From Fluviicola sp. (GTDB lineage Bacteria; Bacteroidota; Bacteroidia; Flavobacteriales_D; Crocinitomicaceae): 64,000 nt of DNA. Position numbers and translations under genes: made by a program. A model generated the notes under the pieces. That model saw nothing but the letters and a program-made list of their open reading frames with translations. It searched no databases and was not told the DNA's origin. The stretch lies in NCBI GenBank assembly GCA_039810825.1, contig JBDHXR010000001.1:10486-74485 (forward strand). The letters run 5' to 3'. Shown piece after piece: positions 39,923-45,617 of this stretch; within the stretch, counting starts at the first letter, position 1, and each line of letters starts with the position of its first letter.

Positions 39923-41155
39923 TTAGGATAGCATTGAAATGCTTTTTTCTACTGCTTCAACAAATTTGTCAACTTCTTCTCTTGTATTGTAAAAGGCAAA
40001 TGATGCCCGCACAGTGCCTGGAATTTGATAAAAATCCATCAAGGGTTGTGTGCAATGGTGACCTGTTCTTACTGCAATCCCTTGTTTATCCAGCAATGTG
40101 CCCAAATCAAACGGATGAATGTTGTGTGCATGAAACGAAACTACAGAAGCTTTGTTTTTCGCCGTACCAATAATCGAAATATTTTCAAAAGTACTTAATA
40201 AATCCTGCGCATAATCAGTAAGTTCATGTTCATACGCTTCAATATCTTTCATGTCGAATTGACTTACATATTCCAATGCTTTTCCTAAACAAATTGCTCC
40301 TGAAATATGTGGAGTGCCAGCTTCAAATTTAAAAGGCAACTCATTGAAGGTTGTTTTTTTGAAGGTGACTTTTTCAATCATGTCTCCGCCTCCTTGATAG
40401 GGCGGCATTGCTTCTAACAAGGCTTCTTTACCGTACAGTATCCCAATTCCCGTTGGTCCGAATACTTTGTGACCAGAGAAGGCAAAAAAATCACAATTTA
40501 ATACTTGAACATCCACCTTTAAATGCTGAATACTTTGCGCTCCATCAATCATAACTTTTGCCCCTACAGCATGTGCCAACGTTATGATTTCTTCTATAGG
40601 ATTTATTGTGCCCAAGGTGTTTGAAACATGTGTAACTGAAACCAATTTCGTTTTTGATGATAACAAGTTTTTATATGCATCAAGATCAAGTTCACCCCTT
40701 TTGTTGATAGGTATCACTTTCAATTCCAATCCTTTTCTTTCTGCTAACATTTGCCATGGAACGATGTTTGAATGATGCTCCATAGTTGATATGATAATTT
40801 CATCACCTTTTTGCAACAGTTCTCCAAAAGAAAATGCTACCAAGTTTATACTATCTGTGGTTCCTTTTGTGAAAATAATTTCTTCTTTCTTTTCTGCATT
40901 GATGAACTCACGAACTTCTTCACGTGCATATTCGTAGTCATTGGTTGCTTGCTGACTTAAAAAGTGAACACCTCTGTGAATGTTTGCATTGCTCTTTGCA
41001 TAATAGGTATTGATTGCATCAATTACCATTTGAGGTTTTTGTGAGGTAGCTCCGTTGTCAAAATAAATCAAATTTTTATTATAGACTTGTTGGTGCAATG
41101 AAGGAAAATCTTGTCTTATTTCTCTGACGCTAAATTTTCTAAAAGAAGGTTCCAT
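39923..41155 (-). CDS. sufS: Cysteine desulfurase SufS
   Basis: YFDNGATSQKP, NIHRGVH, EHHSNIVPW, FSGHKVFGPTG (PLP lysine), VRTGHHC. Confidence 0.95.
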   Translation of the reverse strand: MEPSFRKFSVREIRQDFPSLHQQVYNKNLIYFDNGATSQKPQMVIDAINTYYAKSNANIHRGVHFLSQQATNDYEYAREEVREFINAEKKEEIIFTKGTTDSINLVAFSFGELLQKGDEIIISTMEHHSNIVPWQMLAERKGLELKVIPINKRGELDLDAYKNLLSSKTKLVSVTHVSNTLGTINPIEEIITLAHAVGAKVMIDGAQSIQHLKVDVQVLNCDFFAFSGHKVFGPTGIGILYGKEALLEAMPPYQGGGDMIEKVTFKKTTFNELPFKFEAGTPHISGAICLGKALEYVSQFDMKDIEAYEHELTDYAQDLLSTFENISIIGTAKNKASVVSFHAHNIHPFDLGTLLDKQGIAVRTGHHCTQPLMDFYQIPGTVRASFAFYNTREEVDKFVEAVEKSISMLS

Positions 41156-41220
41156 TTCACAAAATTACAAAATGCTATTTATATTATTTCTAAATAGTAC
41201 TAAAATCTTGTGATATTAAC

Positions 41221-41255
41221 AAAAAAAACCCCCAATTATTTTTTGTAATTGGGGG
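41221..41255 (-). terminator. Strong intrinsic terminator
   Basis: 10-bp stem CCCCCAATTA (41229-41238) / TAATTGGGGG (41246-41255), followed by 8 U on the minus strand. Confidence 0.9.
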
Positions 41256-41478
41256 AGTTGCTACCACACGTACTTTTTTCTATCAGTCTGTACATGTTTT
41301 TTACCTAACTGAAACCTAAACTAACTTAAACTGTTACCTAACTAATAGTGTTATGTGACTGATAGAGTATTTGCTACGGTGAATGAGGAATATGGAAAGA
41401 CCCAAAATCCAGATTCTACACATTCACCAAGCACAATTTTTTTCCATGTTTTATGAAACGTTTTTCATTCATGGATGT
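41221..41478 (-). ncRNA. Candidate structured sigma54-dependent small RNA with AGUUAG repeats
   Basis: Four adjacent stems: 41443-41475, 41372-41433, 41280-41288 paired with 41357-41365, and the terminator; three CTAACT copies inside the third loop; no ORF longer than 18 aa found on the minus strand; promoter-like motif just upstream. Confidence 0.6.
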
Positions 41479-41486
41479 GTTTTCAT

Positions 41487-41505
41487 CTATAAACAATGTG
41501 CCAAA
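41487..41505 (-). promoter_or_regulatory. Putative sigma54 (-24/-12) promoter
   Basis: Minus strand TTTGGCAC-ATTGT-TTATAG; -24 box perfect, -12 box is TTAT instead of TTGC. Confidence 0.5.
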
Positions 41506-41567
41506 AGTTGTTTTTACATTAAATGCCTGAAATACAAGGGGGTTGATTTAGATAGTCAGTGATGATT

Positions 41568-41602
41568 TTTTCAAAATGAAAATAATTTTTTCAAAATGAA
41601 AA
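41568..41602. promoter_or_regulatory. Two tandem palindromes TTTTCA-N3-TGAAAA (putative enhancer sites)
   Basis: Identical 15-mers at 41568-41582 and 41588-41602, 20-bp period, immediately after the activator's stop codon. Confidence 0.65.
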
Positions 41603-41603
41603 A

Positions 41604-42956
41604 TTAATCCAATTCTTTCAACATTCTGTAGATGGTAGTTTGCCCAATATCAAGCTTATCGGCTACCAATTTTATGTTATCGTCGTATTTTTCTAAGAAG
41701 AGTTGAACGATTTTCAGATTGTAGGCACGTAAGCTCATTTCCTCAGTTAGTATTGAGGCAAGCATATTTGACGAACCCAATACAATGTCTTCATCTTGAA
41801 TTACATCATCGCTTGAGAGTACTACAGCAAGTTCAATAACCGATTTAAGTTCGCGGACATTGCCCGGCCAATGGTAAGCCATTAATTTGTTTTGAGCGGA
41901 TGCACTTATTTTCTTTTGTGTTATTCCATTTTCATTACAATAGCGTTCACTAAATACAGTACTTAACAAAAGGATGTCCCGATCACGCTCTCTAAGCGGT
42001 GGAAGTTCAATAGGAAGACCAAATAAGCGAAAGTATAAATCTTCCCTAAATTTTCCTGCCTTTACTTCTTGCAATAAATTTCGATGGGTCGCAACGATGA
42101 TTCGGCAATTGAATTTGTACACAATGTTGCTGCCAATTCTAGATGCTTCTCGTTCTTGAATTGCACGGAGTAATTTTGCTTGAAGATGGATATCCAATTC
42201 TGCAATTTCATCTAAAAATAATGTGCCACCATTGGCTTCTTCAAACTTGCCCTTTCTAAGTTGATTTGCTCCAGTAAACGCCCCTTTTTCATGGCCAAAC
42301 AATTCGCTTTCAAACAATTCGTTTGGTATAGCAGCAACATTTACGGCTACAAATGGTTTATCTTTGAAAGTTGAATTGTAATGAATTGCTTTGGCAACAA
42401 CCTCTTTACCGGTGCCTGTTTCACCATAAATTGTTACCGTTATATTGTTGGTAATAGCTTTTTGTAATATTTTGTACACATGTTCCATCTTAGAGCTTTT
42501 CCCAATGATGGTAGAATTGAAGTTGAATTTTGTGCGTACTTCTTGCTCTAACTTTTCAATTTTTTCAATCAATTGAAATTGCTTACCTGCATTTGCAATG
42601 GTATTTAACAAGCGGTTTCTGATATCATTCCCCTTAACGATGTAATCGTATGCTCCAAGTTTTAATAAAGTAACGGCTGTTTCAATATCTTCTTGCTCAG
42701 AAATGATGATGATGATGGTATTTGGGTGATTTTGCTTGATTTTCTGAAGCAATTCTTCCCCTTCAATACCAGGTAACCGATAATCCATGGTTATGGCAAA
42801 AGGAGAGTCTTCTTTAATTGAGCTAAGCATACTTTCACCATCAGAAAATGATTCAACATCATAATCCGGATTTAGAGACAGCAAGTGGACCAATAGCTTT
42901 CTATACCACTCATTGTCTTCAACAACTACAATTTTATTTCCTTTATTTTGTGTCAT
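41604..42956 (-). CDS. NtrC-family sigma54-dependent response regulator (REC-AAA+-HTH)
   Basis: VVEDN receiver, MDYRLP, GETGTGKE, ELFGHEKGAFTGA, LFLDEI, WPGNVREL, Fis-type HTH; start set at MTQNK (42956). Confidence 0.95.
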   Translation of the reverse strand: MTQNKGNKIVVVEDNEWYRKLLVHLLSLNPDYDVESFSDGESMLSSIKEDSPFAITMDYRLPGIEGEELLQKIKQNHPNTIIIIISEQEDIETAVTLLKLGAYDYIVKGNDIRNRLLNTIANAGKQFQLIEKIEKLEQEVRTKFNFNSTIIGKSSKMEHVYKILQKAITNNITVTIYGETGTGKEVVAKAIHYNSTFKDKPFVAVNVAAIPNELFESELFGHEKGAFTGANQLRKGKFEEANGGTLFLDEIAELDIHLQAKLLRAIQEREASRIGSNIVYKFNCRIIVATHRNLLQEVKAGKFREDLYFRLFGLPIELPPLRERDRDILLLSTVFSERYCNENGITQKKISASAQNKLMAYHWPGNVRELKSVIELAVVLSSDDVIQDEDIVLGSSNMLASILTEEMSLRAYNLKIVQLFLEKYDDNIKLVADKLDIGQTTIYRMLKELD

Positions 42957-43302
42957 TTGATATGTAATTTTGTACTTGCACAAGGCAATTATCTATGTGT
43001 GGTATGAGCTCAGTATATTTTGATTTTCGTTCATATCCTTGTGTTGTTTCTGGCATATTTTCTATTTCTTTAATAGCTTTATAAGCATTGTTTCCACCAA
43101 TCTGCATAATTGCTGGAGCTATTTGGTGGGCAATACTTTGTATTTGTTTCCAATCATCTTTTGCTTCTGCTTCTTTGAGTTGAGTCAGTGCATCTTGTGT
43201 TGTGGAGATAAATGTTTCAAGCAGTTCCATCAGAAAATCCTTATCGTTTCCAATGAGTTGAAGCAGATTGATTAAGTCAATTTTATCAAGAGAGTTTTGC
43301 AT
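42943..43302 (-). CDS. Stand-alone Hpt phosphotransfer protein
   Basis: IDLINL..GNDKDFLMELLETF, DWKQIQSIAHQI helical bundle with conserved His; lies between the kinase and the regulator. Confidence 0.82.
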   Translation of the reverse strand: MQNSLDKIDLINLLQLIGNDKDFLMELLETFISTTQDALTQLKEAEAKDDWKQIQSIAHQIAPAIMQIGGNNAYKAIKEIENMPETTQGYERKSKYTELIPHIDNCLVQVQNYISNDTK

Positions 43303-43303
43303 C

Positions 43304-45385
43304 TTACATTCCTATATTTTCAATTTTTTCTTTCAGAATTTGGGGTTGTATAGGTTTAAGCAACACATCTGTCCAACCACGTGAAATCATTTCTTGATAA
43401 ACTTGTTCATCTCCTGCAGCAGTTAACCCAATAATGGGTTGCGCTTTCAATTTATCCAATTGTTTTAGTTTCTCAATAAATTCTTCGCCATTCATTTCTG
43501 GCATTTGAACATCCAATAGTATCAAATCTACTGAATTGATGTTTAATAATGCTAACGCTTCAATACCGTTTGATGCTTCGTGAATTTTCACATTTACTTT
43601 TTTAAACATTCCCTTCAAAAGCATTCTATTAAACGGTTCATCATCTACAATAAGGATAGATTTTTCGGATAATATTGAGAAATCAACACTTGATGTGGTT
43701 TTGGATTCAGACTTATCGGTTGATTTTTTCATAGGAATGGTAATTTCAAAGCATGTTCCTACGCCAAGTTCACTTTGTACAGTTATTTGTCCACCCATTT
43801 TTTGGACGATTTTTTGTGTGATGCTTAACCCTAAACCTGTGCCGCCATATTTTCGTGAAGTTGACGTTTCTGCTTGTTCAAACGGCTCAAATATATGCGC
43901 TAGTTGTTGCTTTGTCATGCCTATTCCTTTATCCTTCACTAGAATAGTACAAATTCCCGCATTTTCTCCATTGAGCTCATACTTTAACCCAACTTCGATG
44001 CAGCTTTCTTTTGTGAATTTATTGGCATTCCCAATTAAGTTTATTAGAATTTGTTTAAACCTCAGTTCGTCGCCAATAAGTGTTGGGAACATTTTAGGTT
44101 CACAATCTACAAGAATTGTATTTTTTTGTTCTTCTGTAGCAAGCGAAAATTGCTGAACAACTAAATTTACAGCTTTAAAAGGATTAAACGGGCTTTCTTC
44201 CAATTTGATGTTGTTTTCTTCTAATTTTGATAAGTCAAGAATGTCATTAACAATTAGCAGTAAGTGTTTTGCCGAGTCATTGATAATAGATGCTTTTTTG
44301 CTAGTTTCAAGCGATAGTTTTTCATGTGTTAATTGTTCAGAAAAGCCAGATATTGCGTTGAGTGGTGTGCGTATTTCATGACTCATTGTGGCTAAGAAAC
44401 GAGATTTTGCTTCTGTAAGTGCATCGCTTTTTTCTTTAGCAAGTTTCAATGAGTAGTTGCTTTCTTTGGCTCGTCTAAAAAGGTAAACGATGAGTATTAC
44501 AATGAATCCAATCAACACTGCAGAAATGGCACTAAAAGTAAGTGTGATGGTGTTTGTTTTCGCGGCAATGGTCTTGGCTTTTTGAGTTTTGTTCACGAGT
44601 TGGGTTCTATCTAAGCTTGCAATTTGCTGAAAAAGAGAATCTATTTCTTTGCTTAGTTGAACGTTACTTTGTTCTATAATTAGTTTTGATTTATTGATAT
44701 TGCTTTCTTTTTCTACTGCTTGTGTTTTAACAAGACCAATTTTTTTCTTTAAATCTTTGGTGTTTTGAGTTGCTATTCTTTCTGTTGCTATTTGCTCGCT
44801 CTTACTCTTCAGTTGGATATCTTCGTTTTCTTTTTTTCGATCTTTTCTTGATTTTCGGGAAGGTTTATCGGCATCTACTGAGTTGTTTTGATTAGCAGCA
44901 GCTTTTCTGATTTCCAACTCAAGCTGAGTGCGTTGGTCGTTTTTTATTACTTCTTTCTCAACCAATTGCATGGTTTCATTAACGCGAGTTTCATTTCGCA
45001 TTAGCATCAATTTAAATTGGTTGTCAAATTTTTTTGAGCTTAGGTCTCTGATTTCCGAAATGGTCTGCTGATAATCATTGTTCTTTTTTTGATAATTTTT
45101 CAAGTAACCAATTTGCCGCAATGTTTTGGATTGTAATATTTCGAAATCCAGCATCGCTTCGTTGTGATTTTGATAGATGTATGTATAGATCAAATTTTCA
45201 GACTTCAATAAGTTTAAATTTATTTCTTGAATCAAAACTTGACTGTTTTTTTCTTCTTCTGTAGGCAATGGAGTGTTGGCTACTTGATCTAACCGTGTAA
45301 ATACAGCGTATCCTGTGGTGCAAACTACAATTAAGAGCAACGCAATCACGCCAAACAATATGCGCTCAAATATTTTTTTTTTCAT
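43304..45385 (-). CDS. Hybrid sensor histidine kinase (two TM helices, HisKA, HATPase, REC)
   Basis: FLATMSHEIRTPLN, NLIGNANKFT, DKGIGM, GGTGLGL, IVDDEPFN..LLDVQMP; start set at MKKKIF (45385). Confidence 0.93.
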   Translation of the reverse strand: MKKKIFERILFGVIALLLIVVCTTGYAVFTRLDQVANTPLPTEEEKNSQVLIQEINLNLLKSENLIYTYIYQNHNEAMLDFEILQSKTLRQIGYLKNYQKKNNDYQQTISEIRDLSSKKFDNQFKLMLMRNETRVNETMQLVEKEVIKNDQRTQLELEIRKAAANQNNSVDADKPSRKSRKDRKKENEDIQLKSKSEQIATERIATQNTKDLKKKIGLVKTQAVEKESNINKSKLIIEQSNVQLSKEIDSLFQQIASLDRTQLVNKTQKAKTIAAKTNTITLTFSAISAVLIGFIVILIVYLFRRAKESNYSLKLAKEKSDALTEAKSRFLATMSHEIRTPLNAISGFSEQLTHEKLSLETSKKASIINDSAKHLLLIVNDILDLSKLEENNIKLEESPFNPFKAVNLVVQQFSLATEEQKNTILVDCEPKMFPTLIGDELRFKQILINLIGNANKFTKESCIEVGLKYELNGENAGICTILVKDKGIGMTKQQLAHIFEPFEQAETSTSRKYGGTGLGLSITQKIVQKMGGQITVQSELGVGTCFEITIPMKKSTDKSESKTTSSVDFSILSEKSILIVDDEPFNRMLLKGMFKKVNVKIHEASNGIEALALLNINSVDLILLDVQMPEMNGEEFIEKLKQLDKLKAQPIIGLTAAGDEQVYQEMISRGWTDVLLKPIQPQILKEKIENIGM

Positions 45386-45617
45386 TTTGGCAACAGTTTT
45401 CAAATTGAAAATTAATCTTTTATTCCTTTGTTTCTATTAAAATTGAAAATATTTTTTTTTAGACATTTACTCTGGCTTTACTTTAGAAAGGTGCAATCTG
45501 AAATTTTTAAGAAAAAAACTACTGTATTTCAATTCGTTTTTCATGAAAAAAAATTAACTTTCCCCCTTTTTATTATTACGACATAATATTTTTTTAATAT
45601 CACTAGCAAAAGGAAAT

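Follow-up and report, generated by a model that had tools for sequence, protein, structure and literature searches.

A phosphorelay operon of Fluviicola sp. adjoins an expressed, repeat-bearing non-coding RNA with a predicted sigma-54-type promoter

In Pseudomonas, CbrA/CbrB governs CrcZ, a small RNA (sRNA) of about 400 nt in which several short single-stranded motif copies sequester an RNA-binding protein (PMC4063720). The CrcZ gene adjoins that of the NtrC-family activator, and its promoter is RpoN-dependent. In Vibrio, the hybrid kinases LuxQ and LuxN signal through the histidine phosphotransfer (Hpt) protein LuxU to the sigma-54 activator LuxO, which controls the Qrr sRNAs, known to occur as sibling copies (PMC8043402, PMC11407668). 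Here, we analysed a locus of Fluviicola sp. (family Crocinitomicaceae, order Flavobacteriales) that has the wiring of the second system and the gene arrangement of the first: a hybrid kinase, an Hpt protein and an NtrC-family activator are encoded in one operon, and an expressed non-coding RNA of about 255 nt with repeated UUAGGU motifs follows directly behind the activator gene. The locus lies in a 64,000-nt stretch of contig JBDHXR010000001.1 (assembly GCA_039810825.1; hereafter the window), and its source genome is a draft of 2.78 Mb with 35% GC. Matches to named database proteins agree with its placement in Fluviicola. The same DNA sequence is also present in wastewater, sludge and soil metagenomes. 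CbrA/CbrB-CrcZ and LuxO-Qrr are the closest known systems, and the RNA belongs to neither family.

CbrA is not a hybrid kinase with a separate Hpt partner, it comes from a different phylum, and the A-rich motifs of CrcZ (AANAANAA) bind Hfq/Crc, whereas the Fluviicola RNA carries UUAGGU, has no Rfam or sequence similarity to CrcZ and comes from a genome in which tblastn found no Hfq. Qrr RNAs are about 100 nt long, Hfq-dependent and equipped with one conserved pairing seed; the RNA considered here measures 255-460 nt and repeats UUAGGU, and there was no match to the Qrr family in Rfam at E <= 10, so that the RNA is not a Qrr ortholog. On the protein side, scores were good but below the cut-offs: the activator reached 347 bits with the NCBIfam LuxO model (cut-off 800) and the kinase core 293 bits with the LuxQ model (cut-off 1200). 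Since the kinase, the Hpt protein and the activator all fall below the NCBIfam equivalog cut-offs, the operon is LuxQ/LuxO-like in architecture only.

Other described systems share single features with this locus. In Enterobacteria, an envelope two-component system induces the mRNA of the exported protein CpxP, whose 3' end is the regulatory RNA CpxQ. Two Fluviicola relatives (G003 and G004) show the same layout; in contrast to the CpxQ case, most species of the present group lack the coding part, and their RNA has a predicted primary 5' end of its own. NrsZ of Pseudomonas is a sigma-54/NtrC-dependent sRNA with repeated modules encoded directly after ntrC, but it differs in phylum, motif and sensor and shows no homology. 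In GacS/GacA-RsmY/Z and BarA/UvrY-CsrB, the output of a two-component system is an RNA that titrates a global RNA-binding protein through repeated short motifs. These RNAs have sigma-70 promoters, GGA in hairpin loops and CsrA/RsmA as partner, in contrast to UUAGGU in a helix-enclosed region here, and membership in the CsrB/RsmZ type found no support, with no CsrA by tblastn and no Rfam match. GibS and FopS are Bacteroides sRNAs from the same phylum, which lacks Hfq, ProQ and CsrA. They associate with RbpB, one of the global binders that carry just one RNA recognition motif (RRM), and its binding motif GUAGGAUA has the same UAGG core as UUAGGU. Unlike the RNA proposed here, GibS and FopS act by base-pairing and are not sigma-54 dependent, and they show no sequence similarity to it. 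No RbpB sponge is described in the literature searched, and a literature search on UUAGGU, on sigma-54 sRNAs of Flavobacteriia and on DUF4382 (a lipoprotein family considered below) retrieved nothing relevant.

A sequence-only reading of the window had proposed a three-gene phosphorelay of kinase, Hpt protein and GAFTGA-bearing activator, followed right after the activator stop by two tandem palindromes, about 255 nt of structured sequence lacking a convincing open reading frame (ORF), and a strong terminator. All of these elements held up in the present analysis, for which domains were called with Pfam, RNA families with Rfam and equivalog cut-offs with NCBIfam, and genome-wide protein checks were made by tblastn. 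The Pfam domains agree with the three assigned genes, and judged by sequence the locus is a complete phosphorelay, in which an Hpt protein links a membrane-bound hybrid kinase to a sigma-54 activator of the NtrC type. The periplasmic region of the kinase, about 255 aa between two transmembrane (TM) segments, has no family match. An Hpt protein was also called at the equivalent gene in the loci of relatives. The activator has an N-terminal receiver (PF00072, E = 1e-22) and an AAA+ sigma-54 interaction domain (PF00158, E = 1e-67) with the GAFTGA loop at residue 225; its C-terminus gave no HTH_8 match at E <= 0.001, and the tail ...KLVADKLDIGQTTIYRMLKELD resembles a helix-turn-helix (HTH) by eye. 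The longest ORF of the activator (41604-42983) begins at TTG, nine codons before the ATG that database proteins use. This ATG at 42956, which overlaps the stop region of the Hpt gene, is the likely start, as the resulting 450-aa form matches database proteins. An rpoN gene was located in the source genome on contig C22 by tblastn with an RpoN C-terminus (46% identity, E = 4e-31).

The palindromes behind the activator gene are two identical 15-bp dyads (Table 1), the pair beginning 2 nt past the stop codon. Perfect sites of the form TTTTCA-N3-TGAAAA occur seven times in the 2.78-Mb genome, compared with about one expected from base composition, and three of the seven are at this operon. At the operon head, an imperfect copy 20 bp from the perfect one overlaps the kinase ATG, and this second pair is probably an autoregulatory site of the operon. 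In four relatives (G017, G009, G003 and G010), a dyad pair likewise lies at the kinase end, 3.8-4.0 kb from the RNA-side pair, which corresponds to the length of the operon.

The GG of the predicted promoter is 83 bp from the centre of the RNA-side dyad pair. The TGGCAC element is present and this spacing falls within the 80-150 bp expected from paired activator sites to a sigma-54 promoter, but the -12 element reads TTAT rather than TTGC. Across Fluviicola the promoter is near-invariant (TTTGGCAC[G/A]TT[C/G]TTTAT). Elsewhere in the source genome, TGGCAC-N5-TTGA/TTTA sequences stand 25-50 nt before ATGs at C15:11157(-), C23:12059(+), C101:2114(+), C9:33844(-) and C28:19787(-), and these sites are candidate sigma-54 promoters. 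In a second genus, g21, the promoter of the RNA has a TTGA form matching such gene-proximal TGGCAC-N5-TTGA sites, and a relaxed -12 element therefore seems normal in the family.

The RNA sequence is contained in many metatranscriptomes. Six runs from at least five studies (X25, X26, X27, X28, X29 and X34) yielded stand-alone contigs of 189-209 nt with 100% identity, spanning 41251/41262 to 41445/41467, which were the sole contigs over the region. Their depth exceeded that of the flanking genes 5-25 times; it was 13.9 on the RNA versus 0 in run X25 and 71.6 versus 2.8-9.3 in run X27. In these six runs, no coverage was found over 41474-41600, which contains the dyads and the promoter, or over 41146-41227, from the terminator to sufS. 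The latter gap is consistent with sufS having its own start, as had been suggested for the suf genes from the sequence. A transcript starting near 41477 had also been anticipated; the 5' boundary of the contigs (41445-41467) lies just downstream, 10-30 nt inside this predicted start, and the 3' boundary falls at the foot of the terminator hairpin. Contig ends slightly inside the predicted ends are expected for short-word assemblies. The versions of other Fluviicola species were found as RNA contigs of 258-363 nt in rhizosphere and other samples. Thus, a discrete and abundant transcript exists at the locus.

Conservation was analysed in 15 Fluviicola genomes, in 201 genomes of the family (29 genera) for the dyads, and in 286 other Flavobacteriales genomes for a covariance model of the RNA. 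As the sequence-only reading had envisaged, homologous loci again have the dyad pair, the TGGCAC box, the repeat-rich RNA and the terminator behind the activator gene. Past the activator stop, ten other Fluviicola genomes have the dyad pair, then a terminator and TTTGGCACGTTCTTTATAATAG, and then a structured RNA (410-430 nt) with a further terminator; G009 and G010 carry a variant RNA of about 455 nt. The short RNA of the window type occurs in two closer relatives, whose activators are 83% and 80% identical; in one of them different genes come after it, and in Fluviicola generally the genes downstream of the RNA differ from genome to genome. The covariance model of the 3' module detected 11 of the 15 Fluviicola genomes and nothing convincing in the 286 other Flavobacteriales genomes, and the variant form of G010, seen by eye, brings the count to 12. 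Dyads and RNA are both present in these 12 genomes and both absent from the other three, two of which (G007 and G244) have no activator ortholog, the best match being 41% identical. The dyad-pair pattern was found in 26 of the 201 family genomes (8 of 29 genera), and the reversed control pattern in none. The first covariance model missed the divergent forms (G009, G010 and g21), which were recovered with dyad and motif patterns. Peptide patterns derived from the activator were too specific and matched only distant paralogs, and relatives were found by another genome search.

The RNAs of genus g21 are about 115 nt long and combine the dyads with TGGCA[CT]-N5-TTGA, a hairpin, UUAGGUAAGGUUAGGUAAUUAGGU and a terminator; they hold three UUAGGU copies. 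They adjoin an unrelated gene, and the activator ortholog (56-61% identical) is encoded elsewhere in the genome with no dyads nearby. At two g21 loci, L102 (G204) and L103 (G393), the whole dyad-promoter-sRNA-terminator unit is tandemly duplicated at a distance of about 300 bp. An unlinked RNA with the same dyads marks the RNA, on sequence grounds, as a probable real member of the activator's regulon.

The 260-nt stretch that contains the RNA has a predicted fold of -65 kcal/mol (z = -3.6), which was reached by 0 of 200 shuffles. The sole ORF on the RNA strand has 18 codons and is unconserved, as is the MKKNI... frame of relatives, and a small-ORF reading was rejected. Rfam gave no match for the RNA or the window at E <= 10, nor for the relatives at E <= 1; NsiR1, the sole Rfam match on the RNA, was rejected because only the terminator matched. 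Comparison with BTnc231 gave matches far below threshold. A 20-of-21-nt match at C17:25567 was considered as a target and rejected, being a same-sense match inside a dehydrogenase gene.

Four UUAGGU-type copies are present in the window, five in the canonical Fluviicola RNAs and three in g21, with spacers varying between genera. Canonical Fluviicola RNAs have variable leaders, whereas neither their repeat block nor their tail GAAGUACGUGUGGUAGCUAC varies. When the window is compared with the relative L132, identity is about 99% in the 3' module, and conservation is much lower in the spacer that precedes the promoter (columns 70-130 of alignment A4). Base pairing is maintained as well. In P1, 99% of cells are paired, with an A-U to G-C exchange and G-U/A-U changes, and five terminator pairs show double changes across relatives; taken together, P1 and the terminator are 98.5% paired and have six pairs with double changes. 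None of 500 shuffles matched the observed cells paired, double-change cells, pair types or covariation score, two of 500 matched the number of double-change pairs, and slid controls of the pairing collapsed, in an alignment that was fitted to the model and thus favours the structure. The H2 stem shows compensatory changes, and sequence change has left the pairing of H1, H2 and a GC-rich middle hairpin intact.

Table 1. Features of the phosphorelay-RNA locus (window coordinates; UAS, upstream activating sequence; a dot marks features without strand)
Feature	Position	Strand	Details
Hybrid sensor histidine kinase	43304..45385	-	Pfam, sequence and hydropathy: TM1, periplasmic region, TM2, HisKA, HATPase_c, receiver
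Hpt phosphotransfer protein, 119 aa	42943..43302	-	Pfam PF01627, E = 6.8e-6
NtrC-family response regulator / sigma-54 activator	41604..42956	-	Pfam: receiver, Sigma54_activat, AAA lid
Second dyad pair, operon head	45377..45411	.	Perfect TTTTCAAATTGAAAA at 45397-45411 and imperfect copy at 45377-45391
Putative enhancer (UAS), two identical 15-bp dyads TTTTCATTTTGAAAA	41588-41602 and 41568-41582	.	20-bp period
Predicted sigma-54-type promoter TGGCAC-N5-TTAT	41489..41503	-	GG at 41502-41501; predicted start near 41477
Non-coding RNA, about 255 nt	41221..41477	-	Ends inferred from promoter and terminator
Hairpin H1	41444..41474	-	Variable: missing in relative L132, covarying in L133
Long hairpin H2	41373..41432	-	Conserved G-rich apical loop GGAUUUUGGGUCUUU; GUGGGUUUGAA in other Fluviicola
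Helix P1, encloses repeat block	41280..41365	-	CUAUCAGUC (41365-41357) pairs with GACUGAUAG (41288-41280)
UUAGGU repeat block	41303..41341	-	UUAGGU 41341-41336, UUAAGU 41329-41324, UUAGGU 41319-41314, UUAGGU 41308-41303
Invariant single-stranded tail AAGUACGUGUGGUAGCAAC	41257..41275	-	Directly before terminator
Intrinsic terminator	41221..41255	-	10-bp stem 41255-41229, 5 G-C pairs, then U8

The kinase-Hpt-activator-RNA circuit is strongly supported by expression, conservation and co-occurrence. From the promoter type, the joint presence and joint loss of RNA and activator, and the unlinked g21 RNA with the same dyads, we infer that the RNA probably depends on the activator and RpoN. In the proposed mechanism, the phosphorylated activator would bind the two dyads directly behind its own gene and turn on sigma-54 RNA polymerase at TGGCAC-N5-TTAT, giving an abundant non-coding transcript of about 255 nt that ends at the terminator, and the pair at the kinase start codon would probably provide feedback on the operon. 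The active part of the RNA would be the P1-enclosed UUAGGU block together with the invariant tail, and the repeats would most likely bind small single-RRM proteins, titrating or recruiting them. The RNA itself would go back to a sigma-54-dependent envelope operon that once encoded an outer-membrane-like protein and a DUF4382 lipoprotein; it would be the freed leader and 3' end of this operon, whose genes have been lost here. A phosphorelay acting through sigma-54 on a repeat-bearing RNA that works through RRM proteins appears to be the best explanation overall, and we hold it with moderate confidence; that the RNA has some trans-acting regulatory function is likely.

The case for RRM proteins comes from the source genome, from its relatives and from Bacteroides. 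No CsrA, Hfq or ProQ was found in the source genome by tblastn, and the same method identified two genes for single-RRM proteins. In eight of eight other Fluviicola genomes, UUAGGUAA stands 5-10 nt before the AUG of RRM paralog 2, and the leaders often hold one or two further copies about 40-50 nt upstream. The motif also precedes RRM paralog 2 in G024, G007 and genus g21, and in the source genome RRM paralog 1 has UUAGGUAA at -23; genome-wide, TAGGT has a background rate of 1.2% in the 30 nt before a start codon. RbpB of B. thetaiotaomicron binds three copies of GUAGGAUA in vitro with a KD of 5.1 uM and leaves a C/U-rich control unbound (bioRxiv 10.1101/2021.04.27.441718). The rbpB mRNA has an RbpB site, and rbp mRNAs are themselves RbpB ligands (PMC11697453). 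A decoy function is plausible and gains motivation from the combination of UAGG-type repeats, RRM proteins and absence of CsrA, Hfq and ProQ, and the UUAGGU repeats, the RRM genes, UUAGGUAA in the RRM leaders and the RbpB motif make RRM-protein binding the best-motivated mode of action. The RNA might bind RRM proteins or work as a decoy, a proposal that we put forward tentatively.

Several observations weigh against the proposed circuit or its RRM-based output. The RNA evidence consists of assembled contigs, which carry no strand information or exact ends; low-depth contigs of run X31 cross the borders of the RNA (one spans 41407-41557), and run X1 is DNA-like. The -12 element lacks the canonical GC. 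The ribosome-binding-site motif of RRM paralog 2 is degenerate in the source genome (UUUAGAUG), TAGGT clusters are genome-wide not commoner than a reversed-motif control (4 versus 25), and the repeats are only moderately accessible in predicted ensembles (unpaired probability 0.25-0.6). Known RbpB-associated Bacteroides sRNAs, moreover, base-pair rather than act as sponges (PMC11697453).

This last point leads to the most serious alternative, in which the same circuit produces a base-pairing sRNA whose UUAGGU block, tail AAGUACGUGUGGUAGC and/or G-rich H2 loop pair with mRNAs, perhaps with help from an RRM protein, as is the case for GibS and FopS of Bacteroides. The H2 loop and the single-stranded tail by the terminator are indeed invariant, the g21 RNAs occur as sibling copies as do the Qrr sRNAs, and the characterised RbpB-associated sRNAs of Bacteroides all pair near start codons (PMC11697453). 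However, when 2361 start regions were crudely scanned for duplexes with the three candidate seeds, the energies did not surpass those of shuffled seeds, the single outlier being a long AU/GU-rich duplex, and three to five near-identical 6-nt motifs kept across genera with varying spacers are more typical of protein sites. We consider base-pairing as the main mode of action rather unlikely.

Much less probable is a transcribed relic, in which an intact promoter would still produce a functionless leader and 3' untranslated region (UTR) after loss or relocation of DUF4382. Such an origin of the transcript would fit the DUF4382 mRNAs of G003 and G004, which are driven by the same promoter and end in the repeat region, and the source genome, which has no DUF4382 gene at all. 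A relic would hardly explain that the 3' module is nearly invariant among species whose activators are 69-83% identical and whose neighbouring spacer diverges, that a free-standing short version, sometimes duplicated, exists in genus g21, or that the RNA ranks with the most abundant local transcripts in situ. Compensatory changes keep the stems paired, and pairing that survives sequence change speaks against a functionless relic.

It is also highly improbable that the transcript is independent of sigma-54 and the activator, arising by read-through of the activator gene or from an unrecognised sigma-70-type promoter, with no role for the dyads beyond that of an operator of the operon or of a neighbouring gene. 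The non-canonical -12 box and the X31 contig over 41407-41557 would agree with this. Against it, the six RNA runs show no coverage from the activator gene to about 41467, in relatives a terminator separates the dyads from the promoter, and the dyads accompany the RNA even where it is unlinked to the activator; TGGCAC is invariant, and g21 has the local TTGA form of the -12 element, as found upstream of source-genome genes. Finally, a cis-acting leader or attenuator of the suf genes, suggested by the position of the RNA upstream of sufS on the same strand, can be rejected in view of the strong terminator and the RNA coverage gap in between and of a downstream gene that differs in every relative examined.

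For the circuit with a regulatory RNA as output, relatives indicate both a wider regulon and a possible origin of the RNA. The statement of the sequence-only reading that the promoter has no protein-coding target applies to the source genome and does not extend to relatives, in which the same enhancer drives DUF4382 and outer-membrane-like genes and, in two Fluviicola species, the RNA module is the 3' end of an mRNA. In other genera, the dyads follow the activator ortholog (55-62% identical) and precede the TGGCAC promoter of a gene for an outer-membrane-like protein and one for a DUF4382 lipoprotein. G004 has kept both genes, followed by a short repeat-bearing 3'UTR, and G003 has a long leader, one DUF4382 gene and a repeat module overlapping its last codons, so that the UAG of the first repeat motif is the DUF4382 stop codon. 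Other Fluviicola species have DUF4382 genes at different sites, where each gene is preceded by dyads and a TGGCA box of its own, and no DUF4382 gene was found anywhere in the source genome. By sequence, G003 and G004 show the layout expected of a 3'UTR-derived sRNA, and at the window locus no coding sequence is left ahead of the module. The simplest reading is that the RNA represents the leader and 3'UTR of an envelope operon whose coding part was lost or relocated, the order of events being deduced from present-day layouts.

Further dyads were observed outside these arrangements. At L129 (G003:C4, approximately 1184-1250), three consecutive dyads precede a gene for a 204-aa exported protein unrelated to DUF4382, which may be a further regulon member. 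A fourth dyad pair in the source genome, at C61:14723-14757 (locus L116, 824-858), consists of TTTTCAAAATGAAAA, 5 nt and TCTTCATTTTGAAAA. It is situated just after a gene for an exported, beta-barrel-like protein of 236 aa, is followed by about 500 nt of non-coding DNA before a TetR-family gene, and has no TGGCAC box close by. At the other border of the RNA, coverage of sufS starts at about 41136-41145, right behind an TAATTTTG box located 5 nt before the ATG (window 41146-41170), which points to a sufS mRNA with a very short leader or none.

UUAGGU-type sequences were also found in other contexts. Two sRNA-like loci of the source genome outside the window, C44:13403-13420(-) and C186:2139-2156(-) (L114 and L115), carry GAUUUAGGUGGUUAGGUUAGGUUGAUU followed by a terminator hairpin; these short UUAGGU RNA candidates were not confirmed in RNA contigs. 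Near-identical sequences in other genera (L108-L110 and L112) stand behind a TAnnTTTG-type promoter, not a sigma-54 promoter. Arrays of UUAGGU-type heptamers, such as (TTAGGTA)n and (TTAGGTG)n with up to about 20 copies, are present in other Crocinitomicaceae genera (L072-L101). Ten of 21 arrays start between -11 and +35 nt from a same-strand stop codon and two of 21 lie that near the stop of a convergent gene, and some supply the UAG that serves as a gene's stop codon. Such arrays might serve as protein sites in 3'UTRs or as stop traps in all frames. The search for three TTAGGT copies was noisy, with many heptamer microsatellites, and its reversed-pattern control matched too.

A far broader idea, which we regard as speculative and improbable in its full extent, is that a Csr/Rsm-like post-transcriptional system of Crocinitomicaceae, and perhaps of Bacteroidota more widely, uses UUAGGU as its recognition word. 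Single-RRM proteins would bind their own ribosome-binding sites and the post-stop arrays of many genes, and sponges with multiple UUAGGU copies would set the free RRM pool. One of these sponges would be controlled by a sigma-54 envelope phosphorelay, having evolved from a lipoprotein 3'UTR and outlived the coding sequence.

Bacteroidota lack Hfq, ProQ and CsrA, and their post-transcriptional control is only now being mapped; neither a protein-titrating RNA nor a sigma-54-dependent sRNA has been described for this phylum in the literature searched. For RRM proteins of Bacteroidota a single in-vitro motif has been published, which the repeat motif of the Fluviicola RNA resembles, and the RNA can be used as bait for its partner protein. 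Its relatives supply natural variants with three to five repeats, with or without coding sequence, and as single or duplicated genes. With the order of events deduced, the locus also presents a clear case of an mRNA 3' end turned into a free-standing, probably regulatory RNA. As an expressed RNA with a defined signalling input, it is a testable candidate for the missing regulatory layer in Bacteroidota.

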